This document shows positions 2,221 through 60,554 of a DNA stretch of 64,000 bases, in pieces. A model generated the notes under the pieces. The model was not told the origin of the DNA. It made no database searches and saw only the letters and a program-made list of their open reading frames with translations. The translations under genes were made by a program, and so were the position numbers. The DNA is from Patescibacteria group bacterium. Its GTDB lineage: Bacteria > Patescibacteriota > Kazan-3B-28 > UBA10110. Positions within the stretch are counted from its first letter, which is position 1. The number at the start of each line of letters is the position of its first letter. The stretch covers positions 122,670-186,669 of the forward strand of contig JBAZXK010000001.1 in the NCBI GenBank assembly GCA_041659905.1, in the 5' to 3' direction.

Positions 2221-2245
2221 AAACCACCCTAAGGGTGGTTTTTAC
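2221..2245. terminator. bidirectional rho-independent terminator between convergent genes
   Basis: aaaccaccctaagggtggttttt: 6-bp GC stem, 3-nt loop, T-run. The reverse complement also has an A/T run. Confidence 0.7.
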
Positions 2246-3384
2246 TTGCTGGATCGGCCGCCCATCAGGGGCCATTCTTCGAGAATGACAAAAAACACAG
2301 AAGCGACTGGCACGGCCAGAAGCATACCTAAGATGCCCATCAGTTTGGCTCCAATCAGAATGATAATAATGATACTGATAGGGTTTAAACCGACGGTGTG
2401 CTGCATCACCTTAGGCACGAGCAGCTTGTTTTCCAATTCTTGCACTAAAATATAAAAAATAGTTACCATCAAGGCAGTTGTCGGCGAAATAGTGAAGGCG
2501 ATCAAAATGGCCGGCACTGCTGAAATAATCGGTCCGATAATGGGGATAATCTCTAATATTCCCGCCAAAATAGCTAAAGTCAGGGCATAAGGTATATTCA
2601 TCAACCAGAGGCCGACATAAACCAACAGCCCGACGATAATGCCCAAAATGATTTGGCCGCGGAGCCAGCCGCCCAATTTTACGCCAATTTTATGGGCAAT
2701 AGTGATTAAACGAGCTTTTTGTTTAATAGGGAACAAGGAAATAAAAAATTTCTTGATCCCATCTTCATCCAAAACTAGATAAAGAGTTAAAATAAACATC
2801 ACTGCCAATGCCGCCGCTCCGTTGAAGAAGCCGATAGTAGTATTAAAGATGTTTTGCAAAAATCCGCCCAAAAAATTAGATAATGAGTTGAGAGTTTCTT
2901 GGGAAGCATTGAGCCAAGCGTCGTTGCCGAGGTTTTTGAGGCTAGTGATCAAATTGCCGAAAGTCTTGAGATAGTCAGGCAACATAGCGGCCAATTGTTG
3001 GATCTGAATGATCAGTGGCGGCACAATGAAATAAACCACTGCGCTAATGAGAGCCAAGATAAATAAATAAACCATAATCACAGCGATAACTCGCGGACAC
3101 TTACGACGGCATAATTTGTCTATCACCGGAGAAAGGGCCGCTGCGATAATAACCGACACAAAAATAATAGCGATAATGTCGCGCACAAAATACAAAAACC
3201 ACAGCGCCAATAAAACCAGAATAACTTTAAAAATGGAGCCAGTTGATATATCTAGAATAGTTTTTTGATTCATTGTTGTTATAGTGGAAGTAGAGTAAAG
3301 CGAACATGATGCTATCGCCCACATTATACATAATATTGATAAAAAATCATTGGAATTTTTAGAAATTAGTTTATCTGATCCCAT
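2242..3384 (-). CDS. AI-2E family transporter-like (UPF0118/PerM) multi-pass membrane protein
   Basis: 380 aa with about 8 predicted TM helices. Composition and length are typical of the AI-2E/YhhT family. Confidence 0.6.
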   Translation of the reverse strand: MGSDKLISKNSNDFLSILCIMWAIASCSLYSTSTITTMNQKTILDISTGSIFKVILVLLALWFLYFVRDIIAIIFVSVIIAAALSPVIDKLCRRKCPRVIAVIMVYLFILALISAVVYFIVPPLIIQIQQLAAMLPDYLKTFGNLITSLKNLGNDAWLNASQETLNSLSNFLGGFLQNIFNTTIGFFNGAAALAVMFILTLYLVLDEDGIKKFFISLFPIKQKARLITIAHKIGVKLGGWLRGQIILGIIVGLLVYVGLWLMNIPYALTLAILAGILEIIPIIGPIISAVPAILIAFTISPTTALMVTIFYILVQELENKLLVPKVMQHTVGLNPISIIIIILIGAKLMGILGMLLAVPVASVFFVILEEWPLMGGRSSK

Positions 3385-9678: not shown

Positions 9679-12528
9679 GTGGCGCTAGTGAACGAATTTA
9701 TTGAGATTAAAGGGGCTTGTGAACACAACCTCAAAGGTGTTGATGTTAAACTCCCTCGCAATCAATTTATTGTGATTACTGGATTGTCTGGTTCGGGCAA
9801 AAGCTCGTTAGCTTTTGATACTATTTATGCCGAAGGCCAGCGCCGTTATGTCGAATCGCTGTCTGCTTATGCTCGGCAGTTTTTAGGAGTAATGGAAAAG
9901 CCTAATGTAGAAAGCATTACCGGGTTGTCGCCAGCAATTTCTATCGACCAAAAATCTTCTTCTTCTAACCCTCGGTCAACCGTGGGAACGATTACAGAAA
10001 TCTATGATTATCTCCGTCTGTTGTATGCCCGGATTGGTCTACCACATTGTTATAAATGCGGCGCGGTGGTGGCCAAGCAGACGGTGGACCAAATTGTTGA
10101 TCAGATCCAAAAATTACCTGTAAGCAAATTTGCTCTTCTGGCCCCGATGGTATCTGCCAAAAAAGGCGAAGGGAAAGAAGTTTTACAAAATATTAAAAAA
10201 ACAGGATTTTTAAGGGCGAGAATTGATGGAAAAATGGTAGATTTGGATAGCAAAATCGAATTGGCTAAAACTCAAAATCATACTATTGAAGCTGTGATAG
10301 ACCGGCTAGATCTGGCCCAAATAAATAATAACTCTAATCGCAGTCGCATTACCCAATCCGTAGAAACGGCTGTTCGTTTGGGTGAGGGGACAATTATAGT
10401 TTGGGACATAGAAAAAGATAAAGAATGGTTTTTTTCTGAAAGTTTAGCTTGCCCTAAGTGCAGTGTGAGCATTCCGGAGCTCGAACCCAGAAGTTTCTCT
10501 TTCAATAATCCTAAGGGTGCTTGTCCGGCTTGCACGGGATTAGGCATTACCAAGGAGATCGATCCTGAGCTATTGATTCCGAATAAAAAATTGTCCATCA
10601 ACGAAGGAGCCATCCGGGCAGGAGGTTTTAGTATGAGCAGCGGGACAGGTTGGGTGCAAAAAATTTTGGAAGGAGTCGGGAAAAAGTATGGTTTTAAACT
10701 AGATCGGCCGGTAGAAGAATTTTCGCCCAAAGCTTGGCAAGCGCTTTTGTATGGTACTGGCGAAGAAGAAGTCGTGATACATCATCAAAGTACGCATGGG
10801 CGTCGGCTTAATGAATATGTAGTTAAATTTGAAGGAGTCATTCCTAATTTATTGCGGCGGTATAAAGAAACTGATTCCGATTTTGTGCGAGCTGAAATTG
10901 ATAAGGCCATGATTGAGCGCATTTGTTCGGTCTGTAAGGGCGGCCGCTTGCGCCCAGAATCAGTCGCGGTTACCGTCGGAGACCAATCGATTGTGCAAGT
11001 TTCGGCCATGTCGGTGGAACAGATGGTCAAGTGGTTCGATCAATTGCAATTGAATCAGCAAGAAACTTTTATTTCCCAACAGATCCTCAAAGAGTTGAAA
11101 GAGCGAGTTAGGTTTTTAGAACGAGTCGGTTTAAATTATTTGACCTTAAATCGGAGCGCGACCACTTTGTCGGGCGGAGAAGCCCAACGGATTCGTTTAG
11201 CCACCCAGATTGGTTCTGGCCTGTCGGGTGTGATCTACATTTTAGATGAACCATCAATTGGCTTGCACCAGCATGATAATAATAAATTGATCCAATCATT
11301 AAAAGGTTTACGCGATCTCGGCAATACGGTAATTGTGGTAGAACACGATGCGGAAACTATTTTAGCAGCCGATTACGTGGTGGATATGGGGCCGGGAGCG
11401 GGTGATTTTGGGGGAGAAATTATTGCCGTGGGCACGCCAGGAGAAATTAAGAAAAATCCGAAATCATTAACGGGACAATATTTGTCGGGTCGCAAGAGTA
11501 TTCCTTTACCGGCCCAGCGGCGTAAGAGTAATGGGAAAAAACTGGTGGTCCGTGGTGCCGCCGAATTCAATCTCCAAGACATTGATGTCGAATTTCCTTT
11601 GGGGTTATTAGTAGGAGTGACGGGTTTGTCAGGCTCTGGTAAATCGACTCTCGTGAATGAAATTTTGGCCAAAAAATTGACTAACGTTTTGCATGGAGCT
11701 CATCAACTACCAGGTAAACATCGGGTAGTGGAAGGGATTGATTATATAGACAAGATTATTACGATCGATCAATCGCCGATTGGCCGCAGTCCCCGCAGTA
11801 ATCCGGCGACTTATACCGGGGTATTCACGGATGTGCGCGATCTGTTTGCTAAATTACCGGAGGCCAAAATCCGCGGATATCAACAGGGTAGATTTAGTTT
11901 TAATGTCAAAGGCGGTCGCTGCGAGAATTGCGCCGGCGATGGGGTAATCAAAATTGAGATGCATTTTTTGCCCGATGTGTATGTGACTTGCGATGTCTGT
12001 AAGGGCAAACGCTACAATCATGAAGTATTGGAGATTTGTTTTAACGGAAAGAATATCTCCGAGGTATTGGAAATGACAGTGACTGAAGCGCTGGGTTTCT
12101 TTCAAAACATTCCGGCGATCAGAAATAAACTGAGTGTTCTGCAAGAAGTAGGTTTGGGTTATATCAAGTTGGGCCAACCGGCTACTCAGCTATCCGGAGG
12201 GGAGGCGCAAAGAATTAAATTAGCCGCTGAACTGTCTCGCCGCAGTACTGGAAAAACCCTCTATGTTTTGGATGAACCCACTACCGGACTGCATTTTGAT
12301 GATATTAAACGGCTGCTGGAAGTACTGAATAAATTAGTGGATAAGGGCAACACGGTTTTAGTGATCGAGCACAATATGGATGTCATTAAAACGGTCGACT
12401 GGATTATTGATTTAGGTCCCGAGGGCGGGGATAAAGGCGGCGAAGTTGTCGCCGTAGGCACTCCAGAAGATATTACTAAGGTTAAACAAAGTTACACCGG
12501 CCAGTATCTAAAAAAAGTTTTAGGTTGA
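9679..12528 (+). CDS. uvrA: Excinuclease ABC subunit A (UvrA)
   Basis: Two ABC ATPase modules (GLSGSGKSSLAF, LSGGEAQR x2, GVTGLSGSGKSTL), zinc-finger Cys pairs, and N-terminal EHNLK. Confidence 0.95.
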   Translation: MALVNEFIEIKGACEHNLKGVDVKLPRNQFIVITGLSGSGKSSLAFDTIYAEGQRRYVESLSAYARQFLGVMEKPNVESITGLSPAISIDQKSSSSNPRSTVGTITEIYDYLRLLYARIGLPHCYKCGAVVAKQTVDQIVDQIQKLPVSKFALLAPMVSAKKGEGKEVLQNIKKTGFLRARIDGKMVDLDSKIELAKTQNHTIEAVIDRLDLAQINNNSNRSRITQSVETAVRLGEGTIIVWDIEKDKEWFFSESLACPKCSVSIPELEPRSFSFNNPKGACPACTGLGITKEIDPELLIPNKKLSINEGAIRAGGFSMSSGTGWVQKILEGVGKKYGFKLDRPVEEFSPKAWQALLYGTGEEEVVIHHQSTHGRRLNEYVVKFEGVIPNLLRRYKETDSDFVRAEIDKAMIERICSVCKGGRLRPESVAVTVGDQSIVQVSAMSVEQMVKWFDQLQLNQQETFISQQILKELKERVRFLERVGLNYLTLNRSATTLSGGEAQRIRLATQIGSGLSGVIYILDEPSIGLHQHDNNKLIQSLKGLRDLGNTVIVVEHDAETILAADYVVDMGPGAGDFGGEIIAVGTPGEIKKNPKSLTGQYLSGRKSIPLPAQRRKSNGKKLVVRGAAEFNLQDIDVEFPLGLLVGVTGLSGSGKSTLVNEILAKKLTNVLHGAHQLPGKHRVVEGIDYIDKIITIDQSPIGRSPRSNPATYTGVFTDVRDLFAKLPEAKIRGYQQGRFSFNVKGGRCENCAGDGVIKIEMHFLPDVYVTCDVCKGKRYNHEVLEICFNGKNISEVLEMTVTEALGFFQNIPAIRNKLSVLQEVGLGYIKLGQPATQLSGGEAQRIKLAAELSRRSTGKTLYVLDEPTTGLHFDDIKRLLEVLNKLVDKGNTVLVIEHNMDVIKTVDWIIDLGPEGGDKGGEVVAVGTPEDITKVKQSYTGQYLKKVLG

Positions 12529-12553: not shown

Positions 12554-14494
12554 TTGGTTATGATTCAGGTACGATTTAAACCAGATTTGGGGAAGATGCC
12601 GCGGCAGCCGGGGTGCTATTTGATGTCTGACAAAACTGGCAAAGTAATTTATGTGGGCAAGGCGGTAGATCTCCGCAAACGAGTGGCGTCTTATTGGAAC
12701 AAAACTAACCAGCCGATTAAGACCAGTAAACTGTTGGAAAAAGTAGCCAAACTGAATTTTATGATCACCGATACCGAAACCGAAGCTTTGATTCTAGAAA
12801 ATCAGTTAATCAAAAAGCACATGCCCCAATTCAATATTCTACTGCGGGATGATAAAAGCTATCAGTATATTAGGATTGATCTTAATCAGCCCTATCCGGT
12901 GATTGAGGTGGTGCGCAATCCACGCACAATTAAAAAAGAGGCTCGGGTGCGCTATTTTGGGCCCTATACCAGCGGATTGGCGGTAAAATATACTTTACAG
13001 TTGATCAATAAAATTTTTCCGCTGTGTGCTAATGCGGCCATTTTAAATAAAAATGTGCCAACTTCATGTCATTCTGAGCGTAACGAAGTGAAGTCGAAGA
13101 ATCTACGAGCACCAACTTCGAGATCCCTCGACTGCGCTCGGGATGACAAAAGAAAAGGTGGGGTGAAACCCTGTTTGAATTGGCATCTGGGCAAATGTCT
13201 GGGTGTATGTGTCGGACAAAGTTCCAGTGCCGAATATCATCAAGTGGTGCATGAAGTAATCGATTTTTTGAGCGGTAAGGCCAAAGATTGGCGGAAGTAT
13301 TTGCGAGAGCGGATGGAAGCGGCTGCGGCGGGCAAACGCTTTGAAGACGCGCTGAAGCTCCGCGAACAAATTGCCGCCCTTGATATTATTGTTTCCAAGC
13401 AAAAAGTGGCCCAGCCGGATGAATTGATTAGTCAGGATATTTGGGGCTGGCTGGTAACCTCCGAACAGGCGGTGGTGACTATTTCGAAGATCAGACAAGG
13501 AAAAGTAATCGATTATCAAACATTTGTGTTGCGTTTGCCGATGGAAATCAAGTTAGACGAATTTGTCGGGGAAGCGCTCCGGTCAATTTATTCCGCCACC
13601 CTGGATAACTGGCCGAAAGAAATTTTATTGCCGCATTTGCCTAAAGATAGGGTGGCGTTAGAAAAATGGTTGAGTAATTTAGCCGGTCATACCGTCAGAA
13701 TTGCCGTGCCGCAAAAGGGGATTAAAAAACAATTATCTCTCTTGGTGCAAAAAAATGCCGTAGAACAAGCCAGCGCTAAAGTTGGCGCCAATTTGCAAAT
13801 TAAAACTGCCCTCACCCGGCTGCAAAAGTTATTGCAGATCAAACGCCTCAAGCGGATTGAAGCGTATGACATTTCTCATTTGGGCGGGACGGCCACCGTG
13901 GGTTCTATGGTAGTATTTGTGGATGGCAAACCAGCCAAAGCGCAATATCGGCGGTTTCGGATTAAAACCGTGCGTGGGATTGACGATTATGCGTCTTTGG
14001 GCGAAATGATTTATCGCCGCCTGCGTCCGCGGCGCTTAGCCGACAAACGATTTGCCGAAAATCTGCCCGATTTGATTTTGATTGATGGCGGTAAAGGGCA
14101 ATTAAACACTATCATTCGCCAAACCAATCAAATCAATTTACCTAATCTCCCTAAGATTATAAGTTTAGCTAAACGGGAAGAAGAAATTTTTGCGTCCGAT
14201 CAAGCTACGGGGATTAAATTATCTTTGAGTTCGCCGGAACTGCAACTATTACAACGAATTCGTGACGAAGCCCATCGCTTCGCGATTTCTTACCAAGCTG
14301 TGTTGCATAGCCGGGAGTTACGAGGCACCACCAAGATCCCCGGCATCGGCCCGGCCACGCAGAAAAAACTAGTCAAAGTCTTCGGAAGCTTGCGGGCCGC
14401 CCGCCAGGCCAGTCTAAGTGAGCTAGAAAAAATAGTTGGACAAAAAGCCCGCCTGATCAAAGATAATTTGTCAGATTCTGCCAGAGGTTTATGA
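12554..14494 (+). CDS. uvrC: Excinuclease ABC subunit C (UvrC) carrying an in-frame ~33-codon insertion from a palindromic repeat
   Basis: GIY-YIG (PGCYLM...GKVIYVGKA), Cys-rich region KPCLNWHLGKCLGVCV, and C-terminal RNaseH-like and HhH domains. The extra peptide SCHSERNEVKSKNLRAPTSRSLDCARDDKRKGG is encoded by repeat A1. Confidence 0.92.
   Translation: MVMIQVRFKPDLGKMPRQPGCYLMSDKTGKVIYVGKAVDLRKRVASYWNKTNQPIKTSKLLEKVAKLNFMITDTETEALILENQLIKKHMPQFNILLRDDKSYQYIRIDLNQPYPVIEVVRNPRTIKKEARVRYFGPYTSGLAVKYTLQLINKIFPLCANAAILNKNVPTSCHSERNEVKSKNLRAPTSRSLDCARDDKRKGGVKPCLNWHLGKCLGVCVGQSSSAEYHQVVHEVIDFLSGKAKDWRKYLRERMEAAAAGKRFEDALKLREQIAALDIIVSKQKVAQPDELISQDIWGWLVTSEQAVVTISKIRQGKVIDYQTFVLRLPMEIKLDEFVGEALRSIYSATLDNWPKEILLPHLPKDRVALEKWLSNLAGHTVRIAVPQKGIKKQLSLLVQKNAVEQASAKVGANLQIKTALTRLQKLLQIKRLKRIEAYDISHLGGTATVGSMVVFVDGKPAKAQYRRFRIKTVRGIDDYASLGEMIYRRLRPRRLADKRFAENLPDLILIDGGKGQLNTIIRQTNQINLPNLPKIISLAKREEEIFASDQATGIKLSLSSPELQLLQRIRDEAHRFAISYQAVLHSRELRGTTKIPGIGPATQKKLVKVFGSLRAARQASLSELEKIVGQKARLIKDNLSDSARGL
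13068..13147 (+). repeat. Family-A palindromic mini-repeat copy A1 (terminal IR gtcattctgagcg/cgctcgggatgac), inside uvrC
   Basis: 13-nt terminal inverted repeats flank a palindromic core. The core matches the reverse complement of the copy at 60465-60544 and the copy at 49478-49550. Confidence 0.8.
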
Positions 14495-16087: not shown

Positions 16088-21644
<5,557 letters not shown>

Positions 21645-23484: not shown

Positions 23485-23507
23485 AGAATTAAAAATTGTC
23501 ATCCCGG

Positions 23508-23575
23508 ACCGGATTGCCAGAGGTGAATCAGGATCCGGGATCCAGGCCTAGATTCCGGATCAAGTCCGGAATGAC
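23508..23575. repeat. Family-A-like palindromic mini-repeat copy A2 (gtcatcccggac...gtccggaatgac) in the gatC-gatA spacer
   Basis: Terminal 12-nt inverted repeats and internal ggatccggga/tccggatc palindromes. Confidence 0.7.
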
Positions 23576-23587
23576 ACAGAGTAATAT

Positions 23588-31502: not shown

Positions 31503-31520
31503 AAGAAGCTACCTTATCAG

Positions 31521-31539
31521 AAAACCAGCTCCCAGTCAA
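31521..31539 (-). promoter_or_regulatory. conserved promoter module TTGACT-GGGAGCnGGTTTT (copy 1 of 3) upstream of the M23 peptidase
   Basis: Minus strand reads TTGACTGGGAGCTGGTTTT. The same 18-19-mer lies upstream of the two paralogs at 47561-47578 and 48575-48592. Confidence 0.55.
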
Positions 31540-39637: not shown

Positions 39638-39725
39638 TTCCTCCCCTTACGGAGGGGAGGTTAGGTGGGGAGTGTTTATCTAAACTCCCACCTCCCCTCA
39701 CCCCTCCTCGGGCAGGAGGGGAAGA
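39638..39725. repeat. Family-B GC-rich triple-hairpin element (copy B1) in the dacA-aspS spacer, donating the dacA SD
   Basis: cctccccttacggaggggagg, ggtggggagtgtttatctaaactcccacc, and cccctcctcgggcaggagggg. Shares GGAGGTTAGG(A/T)GGGGAG with B2 and B3. Confidence 0.8.
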
Positions 39726-44184: not shown

Positions 44185-44211
44185 TTAGTTAAAGCGTTTG
44201 AAAGTGATAGA

Positions 44212-44320
44212 TTCCTCCCCTTACGGAGGGCCTGCCTGCCGGTAGGCAGGGAGGTTAGGAGGGGAGTTAACACTAAACCCCTACCCCTTAAATACTAGAT
44301 GTTAACCCCTAGATGCTGTG
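44212..44320. repeat. Family-B GC-rich composite element (copy B2: head + tail modules)
   Basis: cctccccttacggagggcctgcctgccggtaggcagggaggttaggaggggag, followed by the tail module shared with B4. Confidence 0.75.
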
Positions 44321-47498: not shown

Positions 47499-47513
47499 AG
47501 CGTGCCTCCTTAA

Positions 47514-47578
47514 TTTTCAATAGTGTCAGGCGCATTTACCTGTAGGGTCAGAATAGCAGAAAAACCGCTCCCAGTCAA
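47514..47578 (-). promoter_or_regulatory. conserved promoter (TTGACT-GGGAGCGGTTTT..TATTCT) plus conserved 5'-UTR hairpin for paralog 1
   Basis: Minus strand: TTGACTgggagcggtttttctgcTATTCT, then cugcaggNaaaugcgccugacacuauugaaaauu, about 90% identical to the copy at 48524-48592. Confidence 0.6.
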
Positions 47579-47740
47579 GGTTTTGTATATATTACGTTGT
47601 TTCAGGCTAGATCTGAGATCTTAAATTTCTATATTGGAGGGGCACCACTCAGCCAGTTGATAGAACACCTCAATCCCAATTAAAAACCCGCCCGTTAAGG
47701 CGAGGTTTTCTTCTATACTGCTAGTAGTGATGTGCAAATA

Positions 47741-48523: not shown

Positions 48524-48592
48524 AAAATTTTCAATAGTGTCAGGCGCATTTGCCTGCAGAGTTAGAATAGTATAAAACCCGCTCCCAGTCAA
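48524..48592 (-). promoter_or_regulatory. conserved promoter module plus 5'-UTR hairpin for paralog 2
   Basis: Minus strand: TTGACTgggagcgggttttatacTATTCT...gcaggcaaatgcgcctgacactattgaaaatt. Confidence 0.6.
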
Positions 48593-48709
48593 TATTTTAA
48601 TGTAACTTCTCCTTCCAGGCCAGAGGCGATTTTGCTCGGAGGGTAATATTATTCTTCGCCTGCCCGTGCCGGACTTGAGCGGCCAGGGAGTGAAATCGAG
48701 AAGTACTTT

Positions 48710-49462: not shown

Positions 49463-49477
49463 AACTCTTCTCTTTTT

Positions 49478-49550
49478 GTCATCCTGAGCGGAACAACAGT
49501 GGAGTCGAAGGATCTCCTCCACTAGATTCCTCGACCTCGCTCGGAATGAC
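49478..49550 (+). repeat. Family-A palindromic mini-repeat copy A3 between the ligase and polymerase genes
   Basis: gtcatcctgagcg...cgctcggaatgac termini; core gtggagtcgaaggatct...agattcctcgac. Confidence 0.8.
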
Positions 49551-49561
49551 AATAATAGATA

Positions 49562-50593
49562 TCAGTTCTCTTTAATAACTAATCTAGATGGTTTATCCAC
49601 TCGCAATCCCATATATACCGGTTGGCGCAGGATATTGTCTTTAGTCCATTCGCCAAAGGCAAATTCCCCCACCAGCCGCGGTTTGAGCCAGATAACAGTT
49701 TCATTTCTGGTTACCATACTCCCTCCCCTCCTAACCTCCTCGCCTAGCCGGCGAGGCTGGCCCTCTGCAGGGGAGGATTTTTTGGAGATGTCGACAAATG
49801 GAGATTTGGTGGATTTAAGTTTTAAGAATTTCTGCTTGAGCTCGCCACGCTCTGTATCAGTAAAACCAGTGCCGACTTTTCCGGCATAAACTAACTTCTT
49901 ACCCCGGTAATAACCCACCAAAACCGCTCCGAAAGTAGTTTTAGTCTTACCCTGACCGGGAGTGTAGGCCCCGATGACAAATTCCTGTTGGTTGTGGGTT
50001 TTGATCTTCACCCAATCACCGCTCCGCCTACCTTCTTGGTAGCGACTATCTATTCTTTTACCGATAATGCCCTCCCAGTGTTTTTGCTTAGCTTTTTTAA
50101 AAAGAGAGATGCCGTCGCTAGATAATGGTGCTAAATAATATAAAACCCCGAGTATGTAGGGTGGGTGAGGCTTGAATAGTAATCTAAGCTTTTCTTTACG
50201 CTCCAGCAGAGATTTAGTTTCCCAATTCTTGCCGTCATAATTTAGCAAATCAAAGGCCAAGTAGGCTGCCGGAACCCTTTTAGTCAGCTTGGCAATTTCA
50301 TGAGGATCGGTTTGACCAATGCGCGGCTGCAGAGCCTGAAAGCTACTAATACCTTTGCGAAAAGCGGTGATCTCACCATCTAGCACCAACTGTTTGGGAG
50401 ATAATTTCTTAATGGCTGCAACAATTTCCGGAAATTGTTTTGCCTTGTCTTTATTGTTTCGCGTCAGCAGTCTAACTTTTTCTCCGGTTTTAATTGCAAT
50501 AATCCGCATCCCGTCAATTTTATGCTCAAAAACCCACTCCTTGCTCTTGAAGGGTTTATCAACCAACCGGCAAAGCATCGGAGCGTATTTCAT
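49562..50593 (-). CDS. ATP-dependent DNA ligase (LigD/LigC-like ligase domain) carrying an in-frame family-B repeat insertion near the C-terminus
   Basis: Adenylation motif EHKIDGMR, OB-fold tail ...WLKPRLVGEFAFGEWT..LRQPVYMGLRVDK. The peptide SPAEGQPRRLGEEVRRGGS is encoded by repeat B3. Confidence 0.85.
   Translation of the reverse strand: MKYAPMLCRLVDKPFKSKEWVFEHKIDGMRIIAIKTGEKVRLLTRNNKDKAKQFPEIVAAIKKLSPKQLVLDGEITAFRKGISSFQALQPRIGQTDPHEIAKLTKRVPAAYLAFDLLNYDGKNWETKSLLERKEKLRLLFKPHPPYILGVLYYLAPLSSDGISLFKKAKQKHWEGIIGKRIDSRYQEGRRSGDWVKIKTHNQQEFVIGAYTPGQGKTKTTFGAVLVGYYRGKKLVYAGKVGTGFTDTERGELKQKFLKLKSTKSPFVDISKKSSPAEGQPRRLGEEVRRGGSMVTRNETVIWLKPRLVGEFAFGEWTKDNILRQPVYMGLRVDKPSRLVIKEN
49719..49785 (-). 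repeat. Family-B GC-rich element copy B3 inside the ATP-dependent ligase ORF
   Basis: The reverse complement reads cctcccctgcagagggccagcctcgccggctaggcgaggaggttaggaggggaggg. Compare B2 gagggcc-[hairpin]-aggttaggaggggag. Confidence 0.75.
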
Positions 50594-50649
50594 ATCTTCG
50601 CACCTTCATTATACAGAATACAGACAAAACAAAGCGAGAAGAATTACGT

Positions 50650-50676
50650 AATTAAATATATATTTAAATAAATACT
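50650..50676. repeat. degenerate copy of the AT-palindrome (taaatatatatttaaataaatactt) upstream of the ligase promoter
   Basis: Similar to the perfect 24-nt palindromes at 53116-53139 and 59021-59044. Confidence 0.45.
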
Positions 50677-50706
50677 TAGCTTTACACTAAAAAAGCCAGC
50701 GGCAGG

Positions 50707-53115: not shown

Positions 53116-53139
53116 AAGTATATATTTAAATATATACTT
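53116..53139. promoter_or_regulatory. perfect 24-nt AT palindrome AAGTATATATTTAAATATATACTT (copy 1) next to a minus-strand terminator hairpin (53157-53179)
   Basis: Exact copy at 59021-59044 with about 57 nt of identical flank. The hairpin stem shows compensatory changes between the copies. Confidence 0.6.
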
Positions 53140-53156
53140 CGGTATGTAATTAAAAA

Positions 53157-58946: not shown

Positions 58947-59020
58947 GTTTCAATTATATCGCTTACAGCGATCTCACTAAGCGATACGAGTTTTATTGAA
59001 CTTCTTTAGGACCCAAAAAG

Positions 59021-59044
59021 AAGTATATATTTAAATATATACTT
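59021..59044. promoter_or_regulatory. perfect 24-nt AT palindrome AAGTATATATTTAAATATATACTT (copy 2) next to the terminator hairpin 59061-59080
   Basis: Identical to 53116-53139. The hairpin caagactgtgcagtcttg preserves its stem through compensatory substitutions. Confidence 0.6.
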
Positions 59045-60428: not shown

Positions 60429-60464
60429 TTGATTGATGTTAATGATATTTGTTACATTATCCCT

Positions 60465-60544
60465 GTCATCCCGACCATAGTGGAGGGATCTCGGCGCTTG
60501 TGTCTCGAGATTCTTCGACTCCACTTCGTTCCGCTCAGAATGAC
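60465..60544 (-). repeat. Family-A palindromic mini-repeat copy A4
   Basis: The reverse-complement core aacgaagtggagtcgaagaatct...cgagatccctcc matches the A1 core almost base for base. Right terminus is cgctcagaatgac. Confidence 0.8.
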
Positions 60545-60554
60545 AGATGTAGGG

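Follow-up and report, generated by a model that had tools for sequence, protein, structure and literature searches.

The closest described relatives of the elements reported here are found in the CGTC/TGTC-tagged REP superfamily, which includes Neisseria dRS3 and the Rickettsia elements RPE-4 and RPE-6 (CGTC-4 and CGTC-1, respectively) (Di Nocera, De Gregorio and Rocco 2013, BMC Genomics 14:522; PMC3733652). Units of this superfamily have no associated transposase and occur mostly as inverted dimers with their tags facing outward; the published survey recorded them in five phyla, mostly in Alphaproteobacteria (PMC3733652). In-frame copies have already been reported in uvrA, uvrB and uvrC, including a dimer in the uvrC of Xanthobacter. 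Such in-frame dimers encode 20 to 30 amino acids and are over-represented in genes for excinucleases and other repair functions (PMC3733652). Three other systems invite comparison: the REPINs with their RAYTs (Bertels and Rainey 2011; Nunvar 2010), the Rickettsia palindromic elements (Ogata 2000), and the class 3 TnpA-Y1 loci of Acidobacteria and Planctomycetes (Quentin 2018).

The stretch of DNA analysed here, a 64-kb window, carries four palindromic elements of about 80 nt, A1 to A4, one within uvrC and three in short intergenic spacers. A first-pass annotation had described them as elements bounded by terminal inverted repeats around a palindromic core. All four copies exist, but each is better described as a dimer of two self-contained, tagged hairpins. 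We consider it probable that A1 to A4 are dimers of two inverted REP-type units and belong to the CGTC/TGTC-tagged superfamily or to a close variant of it. In the proposed layout, an unpaired 5′ tag (T/C)GTC would be followed by a 5-bp clamp, ATYCY/RGRAT, enclosing a purine-rich interior, GAGCG..(A/G)(G/T)CGA, possibly with a small apical hairpin, and a short tail would close the unit.

Element extents are counted with the conserved flanking T and A. A1 (13067–13148, plus strand) lies in frame in uvrC and consists of two TGTC-tagged units in inverted orientation. Its long arm (13067–13104, plus strand) has the tag TGTC, the clamp ATTCT...AGAAT, the interior GAGCGTA-ACGAAGT-GAAGTCGA and the tail CT, the same architecture as in long arms from other organisms. 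The central spacer (13105–13120, plus strand) reads ACGAGCACCAACTTCG, and the short arm (13121–13148, minus strand) is composed of TGTC, ATCCC, GAGCGCAGTCGA, GGGAT and CT. The 8-mer CCAACTTC precedes the element at 13058–13065 and recurs inside the central spacer at 13112–13119. A2 (23497–23576, plus strand), in the gatC–gatA spacer, is a dimer of canonical CGTC-type units. Its left arm (23497–23544) has the 8-bp stem ATCCCGGA/TCCGGGAT, a long loop and the tail CCA, and its right arm (23549–23576) the 8-bp stem ATTCCGGA/TCCGGAAT and a 5-nt loop. The start originally assigned to this copy, 23508, was about 10 nt off. Because A2 has only the tag and first stem bases (GTCATYCCGGAC) in common with the others and differs from them in its interior, it is placed in a different sub-family.

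A3 (49477–49551, plus strand; long arm 49477–49515, short arm 49524–49551) lies between a LigD-type ligase gene and a downstream gene labelled at first pass as a putative primase-polymerase, both on the minus strand, 10 nt past the stop codon of the one and 15 nt ahead of the start codon of the other. A4 (60464–60545, minus strand, that is, in reverse orientation; long arm 60508–60545, short arm 60464–60491) lies between a glycosyltransferase gene and a gene whose small product (104 aa) is hydrophobic, again both on the minus strand. A1, A3 and A4 are clear homologues, with the reversed A4 82% complementary to A1 over 82 nt. The placement of A2, A3 and A4 in spacers of co-directional genes was correctly described; they fill nearly the whole gap and start 10 to 13 nt past the upstream stop codon.

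All eight arm ends in the window carry TGTC, and all stems begin with A-T and then T-A. The termini motif has 13 matches in the window against 4.7 expected, and its eight exact matches are the eight ends of A1 to A4. The terminal inverted repeats noted earlier are imperfect, with 11 of 13 positions matching in A1, A2 and A3 and 9 of 13 in A4. The two arms of A1, A3 and A4 are of unlike clamp type, and each arm is self-complementary. A covariance model built solely from arms of other phyla, with no window sequence in it, recovered seven of the eight window arms (E from 9e-8 to 6e-3) and found nothing significant in the 64 kb beyond the arms of A1 to A4; the eighth arm, A2 left, scored E=2.4. 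The best match in the window was the A1 short arm (13119–13149, 37 bits, E=8.9e-8), and the A1 long arm was matched at 13066–13106 (E=1.3e-5). Each copy folds into a long hairpin (RNA –27 to –36 kcal/mol, z –2.0 to –5.2). Rfam returned two tRNAs and no family for the elements when the whole window was searched at gathering thresholds, and nothing below E=0.5 around A1 with permissive E-values. We considered whether the CUGA...CGAAG interior might be hammerhead-like or a k-turn and rejected this, as the core positions misfit and no Rfam model matches.

The internal organisation of the arms was apparent from dimers of other phyla. In 108 such dimers, the two variable clamp pairs were Watson-Crick within the arm in 421 of 432 cases, and in dimers with unlike termini the inner bases followed their own arm in 74 of 78 cases. 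A formal covariation count gave CG 78 and UA 41 for pair 8–24, and UA 84 and CG 38 for pair 10–22, while pair 7–25 was UA in all 122 arms and pair 6–26 was AU in 95 of 122. Overall, 96.6% of cells were paired, a value equalled in none of 500 shuffles. Single arms of the A1/A3/A4 type form weak DNA hairpins by nearest-neighbour calculation (–0.8 to –4.8 kcal/mol, no better than shuffles), and the whole-element hairpin is far more stable; the case for pairing within arms is therefore made by covariation alone.

The recurrence of the termini motif elsewhere, on which the first-pass annotation had made its proposal depend, was found to be wide, and the family is pan-bacterial, not specific to CPR. 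The unit GTCATYCYGAGCG-N-AGCGARGRATC was found in at least 120 GTDB species genomes and in at least 12 phyla, the latter counted among 80 of these matches, and the long-arm variant was found on at least 119 contigs from metagenomes. Among 248 ends taken from other genomes, T stood 5′ of GTCAT in 78% and C in 14%. Canonical CGTC-1 units are also present in loci that carry GAGCG-type units. In-frame copies in MnmE and in a glycosyltransferase are read in the same frame (CHPERNEVESKDL). No matches to the element were obtained by blastn in plasmid and phage collections, and a viral collection of 2.9 million contigs gave only 19 matching stretches. Written as a DNA oligonucleotide, a candidate unit hairpin is d(TGTCATCCTGAGCGAAGCGAAGGATCT).

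Compared to the published CGTC superfamily, the elements share the unpaired 5′ tag (CGTC, often TGTC, or CCTC), the stem starting with A-T and T-A, the inverted dimers with tags outward, the lack of an associated transposase in the loci searched and the position just downstream of ORFs between co-directional genes. A2 has the published geometry (8–9 bp stem, 4–5 nt loop) in its right arm and the stem with a longer loop in its left arm, and another CPR genome (L268) has a canonical CGTC-1 unit within the reading frame of a LigA-like gene. The units also agree in total length, which is 21 nt in the canonical arm. The 3′ tail is CCA, the CGTC consensus, in the A2 left arm and CT(C/A) in the other arms. 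Unlike the published units, however, the A1/A3/A4 arms have a 5-bp clamp with a purine-rich GAGCG...CGA interior instead of an 8–9 bp stem; the clamp is followed by tandem G.A and then by 1–2 bp or a separate apical mini-hairpin. This GAGCG variant, present in at least 12 phyla versus five in the published survey, is not spelled out in the searchable literature text.

Likeness to the other systems is partial. As in REPINs, a larger hairpin arises from two inverted hairpins with a spacer, the target is not duplicated, and the unit is a tag plus hairpin of the kind bound by Y1 HUH nucleases; the tag, however, is TGTC/CGTC and not GTAG/GTGG, and the sequence is conserved across phyla, in contrast to species-specific REPINs. 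Rickettsia palindromic elements are similarly tolerated in frame as surface loops of conserved proteins and absent from orthologues, although the long arm here is of another sequence family and the host belongs to a free-standing CPR lineage, not to an intracellular alphaproteobacterium. The analogy drawn earlier to these elements is apt, as RPE-4 and RPE-6 fall in the same superfamily; at the peptide level, the solo unit of L268, rather than A1, encodes DSRLRGND against the published R. conorii DSRFRGND. The parallel with Correia elements does not hold: compared to these and other DDE-type MITEs, the present elements make no target-site duplication and no parent IS was seen in 262 loci. The class 3 TnpA-Y1 loci have hairpins in high copy number (about 600 in Solibacter) whose 5′ foot is CnGA; this foot can be likened, by description only, to the C-Y-G-A just ahead of the GCGNAGC core here; the unit is commonest in the same phyla, Acidobacteria and Planctomycetes.

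The uvrC ORF (12554–14494, plus strand) spans 646 aa mechanically and 644 aa in public calls, which begin at residue 3. It is uninterrupted, contains the peptide SCHSERNEVKSKNLRAPTSRSLDCARDDKRKGG, and retains intact GIY-YIG, UvrC_M and RNase H-like domains. A1 encodes approximately residues 172–198 (CHSERNEVKSKNLRAPTSRSLDCARDD) of a segment delimited by ortholog comparison, N167–V204 (38 aa; 13052–13165, plus strand), which stands where empty-site orthologues have four residues (ATKS or NNQQ). The in-frame, lineage-specific character of this copy, as claimed at first pass, is borne out by six orthologous UvrC proteins lacking the segment (P0006, P0008, P0010–P0013). The estimate of about 33 added codons was close to the net gain of 34 (57 versus 23 residues from FP..C to PCLNWH), but only about 27 of them come from the 82-nt A1, and about 7 (some 20 nt) are not element-derived. 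There is one orthologous filled site, in a relative at 76% identity (L001) that has the same insertion. The site is an insertion hotspot at which relatives carry other repeats.

The insert lies, as first proposed, between conserved cysteines, namely Cys158 and Cys207 of a four-Cys module (13025–13210, plus strand; C158 at 13025–13027, C207 at 13172–13174, C215 at 13196–13198, C219 at 13208–13210). The Cys2-x7-Cys3-x3-Cys4 spacing is retained and the Cys1–Cys2 gap is widened to 48 residues; C207, C215 and C219 are invariant, and C158 is at least 90% conserved. In the AlphaFold model (mean pLDDT 83), values below 50 occur in this region only at residues 172–201. The N167–V204 segment is predicted to be disordered, and A1 would give the protein a floppy loop of some 30 aa on its surface. 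Solved UvrC structures comprise the GIY-YIG domain only, with none covering the Cys module. The Cys1–Cys2 loop can be regarded as highly permissive.

Between the window and L001, a single orthologous pair, A1 is identical at 75 of 82 positions (91.5%), compared to 73–79% in flanking uvrC. At third codon positions, A1 differs at 2 of 27 sites and the gene at 47% (P about 1e-5). Two of the differences together make up a compensatory change, C-G to T-A, in the clamp of the short arm, and the CCAACTTC direct repeat is also kept in L001. Since this identity persists although flanking synonymous sites are merely 53% identical between the two lineages, A1 appears from the alignment to be constrained at the nucleotide level.

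An enzyme able to mobilise the units was sought with phmmer (E. coli RayT as query), a motif regex and an HMM made from 16 published RAYT/TIRYT sequences, in every ORF of the window and of 1.9 Mb of element-bearing loci. This material yielded no mobilising enzyme; the one Y1/RAYT-like ORF in it lies in Hymenobacter (L055), with a top-scoring dimer just upstream. That association was rejected because four orthologous loci have no units beside the gene. Likewise, no RAYT gene flanked by these units (a REPtron) was found in the window or the sampled loci, and no class 3 TnpA-Y1 gene among the latter.

How, then, should the elements be explained? A classical MITE, derived from an IS by deletion and moved by a DDE transposase that recognises 13-nt terminal inverted repeats, would account for the imperfect inverted ends with TG...CA terminal dinucleotides, the 75–82 nt size and the dispersed copies. 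Against this, direct flank matches stayed at control level for k=1–8 and three boundary offsets in 124 copies, indicating no target-site duplications, and the flanks of 122 metagenome long arms held neither a target-site duplication nor any general repeat. Furthermore, the arms vary as internally complementary units and not as paired ends, many metagenome units have no canonical partner inside 110 nt, no transposase-like ORF in the 262 loci is flanked by paired solo arms, and the near-identity of 26-nt units across at least 12 phyla is not what is seen in lineage-restricted MITEs; we regard a MITE as quite improbable. Selection of the hairpin as an RNA or DNA signal (an mRNA stabiliser, processing site, attenuator between cistrons or protein-binding DNA hairpin), with the uvrC copy an exaptation and not a parasite, gains from the strong RNA hairpins, from the start of three of the four copies just past a stop codon within co-directional pairs, as in published REP placement, and from the conservation of A1 far above synonymous expectation with its compensatory change. 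Inconsistent orientation to transcription (two copies long-arm-first, one short-arm-first), close relatives without the element at the same sites and the lack of an Rfam match nevertheless leave it doubtful. It is compatible with, and not exclusive of, a selfish origin.

A wider version, in which the unit is a pan-bacterial single-stranded-DNA signal read by machinery conserved across phyla and the copies in repair genes are functional hairpins instead of parasites, would fit the near-identity of the unit across phyla, the apparent purifying selection on nucleotides even within a coding region, and the recurrence in or beside DNA-repair genes (uvrC and the LigD operon here; uvrC and the LigA-like gene in the other CPR genome). 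We think it unlikely; if true, the hairpins might be, for example, damage-responsive or replication-responsive regulators. The two copies of CCAACTTC, which flank the long arm 54 nt apart and in frame, are conserved in L001 and have a stable hairpin between them, raise the question of whether the insert is missing from mature UvrC, either as an excised intervening sequence or through translational bypass between the repeats. Yet the frame is open throughout with no stop after the putative take-off site, intron or ribozyme matches are absent, the repeat is missing from other copies, and in-frame copies elsewhere, those in MnmE and the glycosyltransferase, are read in the same frame, all of which makes this very improbable. 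Nothing specific favours an assembly or binning artefact, whose likelihood is negligible: for both A3 and A4, independent ENA and Logan assemblies gave an identical sequence, UvrC is present in NCBI, JGI and Logan sources, and the orthologous insertion occurs in a different genome.

Returning to inverted REP-type dimers as the preferred explanation, we infer that the units move as hairpins of single-stranded DNA, mobilised in trans by an enzyme whose gene does not lie beside them. Transposition would proceed without target duplication; an HUH/Y1-type nuclease is the obvious candidate, although none was found in the material searched. In uvrC, one dimer is shown to have entered the Cys1–Cys2 loop before the lineages of the window organism and of L001 diverged, and the insertion, A1 plus some 20 nt of other origin, persisted only because it keeps the frame and introduces no stop codon. 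Resident hairpins may then be kept by selection or by self-correction at the nucleotide level, and stem-loops in transcripts could protect or process the upstream cistron.

These observations have consequences for annotation, in that the units give spurious N-terminal extensions and small spurious ORFs and inflate protein length variation in metagenomes. The earlier warning that A3 and A4 mislead ORF callers is supported by the mechanical ORFs, which run into the element at both sites; among public calls, one of 136 aa at A4 (L248) is extended, whereas another of 104 aa at A4 (L247) and the ENA call at A3 are not. In-frame REP dimers in excinuclease genes have been published (PMC3733652); what is apparently unreported is just the CPR setting, for which the first-pass annotation knew of no equivalent, and in our literature searches the literal element sequence gave nothing relevant and no CPR report of a REP or MITE was found. 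The GAGCG-type unit, whose transposase is still missing, would widen the phylum range of the CGTC/TGTC-tagged superfamily well beyond that in the published survey. An intragenic repeat conserved far above the synonymous rate in a clean orthologous pair makes the question of parasite or signal testable. Streamlined CPR genomes, it would appear, also carry REP-type selfish hairpins, which are tolerated even within core repair proteins.

Direct reading of the loci confirmed the four palindromic copies claimed by the first-pass annotation. With the conserved flanking T and A included, they extend over 13067–13148 in uvrC (A1), 23497–23576, where A2 fills the gatC–gatA spacer, 49477–49551 in the spacer 3′ of the LigD-type ligase gene (A3), and 60464–60545 between a glycosyltransferase gene and a gene for a small hydrophobic protein (A4). 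The start first given for A2 (23508) was 10 nt off. The termini motif GTCATYCYGRNC has 13 matches in the window against 4.7 expected, and its eight exact matches are both ends of each of the four elements. A1, A3, and reversed A4 align end to end (A4 is 82% reverse-complementary to A1 across 82 nt), and A2 is similar at the ends only. RNA folding of each copy, which had been proposed as a check, gave a long hairpin in all four (−27 to −36 kcal/mol, z −2.0 to −5.2). An Rfam search found no family at the elements, its sole matches being two unrelated tRNAs. The elements are not artefacts, as independent assemblies match the window at 100% identity.

The anatomy first proposed for these elements, terminal inverted repeats around a palindromic core, was not upheld: each is a dimer of TGTC-tagged REP-type hairpins and not a MITE. 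Copies from other genomes share a common unit (YTGTC, ATYCY, GAGCG-N-AGCGA, RGRAT, CT) on both sides of a variable centre. Within each arm ATYCY and RGRAT covary, 421 of 432 pairs being Watson–Crick. In copies with unlike ends, the inner bases match their own arm in 74 of 78 cases. Among 122 distinct arms, the two variable pairs are CG 78/UA 41 and UA 84/CG 38, a result that no shuffle or slid register comes near. The window copies follow the same within-arm pattern, as in A1 (TTCT/AGAA left, CCC/GGG right). Because of this covariation, the evolving unit, judged by sequence comparison, is the arm and not the pair of ends. Furthermore, no target-site duplications were found.

A covariance model built from foreign arms only, with no window sequence, picked out both arms of A1, A3, and A4 but only the right one of A2 (E 9e-8 to 6e-3), and had no other significant hit in the window. 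At 2270–2291 (minus strand), the 3′ end of the ORF 2242–3384, TGTCATTCTCGAAGAATGG may be a degenerate solo unit; the model scores it weakly (E about 1). In A1, A3, and A4, the long arm has ACGAAGT as a small hairpin at its apex, flanked by the conserved GAGCGGA and GGAGTCGA, and in other organisms this apical hairpin varies with compensating changes. The nearest-neighbour DNA energies of the A1, A3, and A4 arms are weak, which counts against stable arm hairpins; the GCGAAGC core is known to form a DNA mini-hairpin of unusual stability, which nearest-neighbour models undervalue.

CGTC-tagged REPs bear the tag CGTC, often TGTC, and are mostly dimers, with a stem of 8–9 bp starting with A-T then T-A, a loop of 4–5 nt, and a tail CCA (Di Nocera et al. 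2013, PMC3733652). They include Neisseria dRS3 and Rickettsia RPE-4/6, have no known dedicated transposase, and lie directly downstream of ORFs, between co-directional genes; their in-frame intragenic copies are concentrated in replication and repair genes, and a CGTC-3 dimer is found in the Xanthobacter excinuclease C subunit (PMC3733652 and its supplement). A2 fits this published definition closely. A1, A3, and A4 resemble these REPs in tag, A-T start, dimer layout, placement, and lack of a transposase, but differ in stem and loop geometry. Some loci contain canonical CGTC-1 units together with GAGCG-type ones. In another CPR genome (L268), uvrC has a CGTC-tagged dimer, in frame, within the part for the GIY-YIG domain (10171–10292), and a LigA-like gene has a canonical CGTC-1 unit, CCGTCATTCCCGCGAAGGCGGGAATCT, which is solo and likewise in frame (18344–18372; peptide DSRLRGND). 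In metagenomes, in-frame copies occur in MnmE and a glycosyltransferase in the same reading frame. Collectively, A1–A4 are a member or variant sub-family of the known CGTC/TGTC-tagged REP kind, and in-frame REP copies in excinuclease genes are already published. No paper that we found connects such elements with CPR, in agreement with the earlier statement that no equivalent report was known for CPR-like genomes, and none spells out the GAGCG-type unit.

A protein search across 5.8 billion sequences returned the window UvrC, whose annotation is Patescibacteria UvrC, together with graded relatives, which were compared by alignment and at the DNA level. The A1-bearing ORF runs uninterrupted for 646 codons with the insert between Cys158 and Cys207, so the copy is in frame between conserved Cys residues as had been described. 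Six orthologues (P0006, 82% identical; P0008, 76%; and P0010–P0013) have an empty site, LNK-xxxx-KPC. The window protein has 38 residues where these have 4, a net gain of 34 codons, close to the 33 attributed to the repeat; only 82 nt of the insert are the element, however, and the remainder (NVPTS, KRKGGV) is of other origin. KRKGGV resembles remnants of a different repeat at the same site in P0002–P0005 and P0007, whose inserts belong to the second repeat family of the window (CCTCCCC-TTAC-GGAGGGG). P0009 (76% identity) shares both the element and its position, and in addition has a nested 30-nt hairpin and extra sequence. At its DNA locus (L001), this hairpin, CCCGCCGTCGCCAAGGCTTTGGCGGGCAGG, interrupts the short arm at ATCCT^GAGCG (295–324), the element is followed by the extra sequence, and the UvrC loop exceeds that of empty-site orthologues by 60 residues. 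Since relatives carry different inserts, or none, at the same site, the Cys158–Cys207 stretch is, as the aligned proteins read, an insertion hotspot. Cys207, Cys215, and Cys219 are invariant, with spacing x7 and x3, and the four Cys residues, including Cys158, are presumably counterparts of the ligands that hold the [4Fe-4S] cluster in E. coli UvrC. In an AlphaFold model (117 sequences), pLDDT averages 83 and falls below 50 exactly at residues 172–201; solved structures cover the GIY-YIG domain only and not the Cys module.

The 8-mer CCAACTTC stands immediately 5′ of A1 (13058–13065) and again in its central spacer (13112–13119), 54 nt apart and in frame, and both are retained in L001; no such flanking repeat was found at 122 metagenome long arms. 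CPR UvrC proteins (P0007, P0010, P0016, P0019, P0021) have repeat-derived inserts at three further sites, within the GIY-YIG domain after GVYLMY, after DQPI (PPGQRPSWAGG), and after WLS.. (NPTPPL...GKGRS..NPLLSKEGxGVV).

Conservation was tested on a single orthologous pair, the window uvrC and L001. The elements are identical at 75 of 82 positions, compared to 73–79% in the flanking gene and 53% at its third codon positions; the element differs at just 2 of its 27 third positions (P about 1e-5), and no other 82-nt window in uvrC exceeds its identity. None of the seven differences breaks a stem, and two of them together replace C-G by T-A in the clamp of the short arm, a compensatory change. 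In this pair, the identity relative to third positions and the compensatory change point to constraint on nucleotide sequence or structure.

A3 starts 10 nt past the ligase stop codon and ends 15 nt ahead of the likely ATG of the downstream minus-strand gene, a primase-polymerase in the first-pass annotation. The claim that A3 and A4 mislead ORF callers held in part. ORFs taken mechanically run into both, and the A4 neighbour is extended in one public assembly (136 aa) but not in another (104 aa); the public call for the A3 neighbour is correct, without extension.

Other repeats were also noted. The second family (CCTCCCC-TTAC-GGAGGGG-AGGTTAGG..., multi-hairpin) lies at 49716–49760, 39640–39725, and 44210–44290. 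The first of these copies is in frame in the LigD-type ligase (minus-strand ORF 49562–50593) as RRLGEEVRRGGS, exactly where this protein has ~21 residues more than the M. tuberculosis LigD ligase domain (1vs0). Three places (53116–53140, 59020–59044, and 50642–50677) have a perfect, AT-rich palindrome of 25 nt, AAGTATATATTTAAATATATACTTC, as part of a 57-nt repeat, two copies being 95% identical. Two consecutive minus-strand genes have a 73-nt direct repeat (88% identity; 47512–47584 and 48526–48598, also 31515–31539) just upstream.

The terminal repeats recur well beyond the window. A scan of GTDB with one genome per species, for two termini 40–70 nt apart, found at least 120 matching stretches, with an estimated chance expectation below 1. 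The first 80 matches listed cover at least 12 phyla; those listed include Acidobacteriota, Verrucomicrobiota, Planctomycetota, Bacteroidota, Gemmatimonadota, Chloroflexota, Nitrospirota, Alpha- and Gammaproteobacteria, Firmicutes, Armatimonadota, Saccharimonadales, and Desulfobacterota (two MAGs, Desulfatirhabdium and Desulfovibrio). At least 119 metagenome contigs have the long arm, which often lacks a canonical partner within 110 nt. In many contigs (L137, L142, L149, L159, L170, L180, L183; L133, L146, L179) it is fused to other recurrent modules, AGGGCAAGTCTTCC...CCCCTAAAACCCC or TTTTGCCGGCACTTCCGG...GGCCGCCATATATGGCGGCC, which suggests larger composite repeats. Blastn against plasmid and phage collections gave no match to the elements, and viral contigs gave 19 matches only. 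One IMG/VR contig labelled viral (L256; 14 kb examined, ~58–61% GC) has 15 arms, about 7 dimers, crowding the spacers between plus-strand genes, and some are exact window-type long arms.

Hairpin-unit anatomy, lack of duplications, placement, and in-frame tolerance are demonstrated for the elements; the units may spread in the form of single-stranded hairpins, by way of a nuclease acting in trans. Three methods were used to look for Y1/RAYT genes in the window and in element-bearing loci totalling 1.9 Mb; together they found one gene only, in Hymenobacter (L055), with a dimer directly upstream. Its link to the units was dropped because orthologues occur in four other genomes without them. This RayT-like gene (L055 3692–4255; L269–L272) is on one contig in most Hymenobacter genomes and adjoins the same large helicase gene in L055, L269, and L271; the units occur there only in H. 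metallilatus, as a single dimer inserted into the spacer. Class 3 TnpA-Y1 proteins of Acidobacteria and Planctomycetes are described with high-copy hairpins with a CnGA foot (Quentin 2018), which the present unit, with CYGA before its GCGNAGC core, may resemble.

The CPR host is new, as are the exact place of the hotspot within the Cys loop of UvrC, the wide distribution of the GAGCG-type unit, and the finding that an intragenic copy is strongly conserved.
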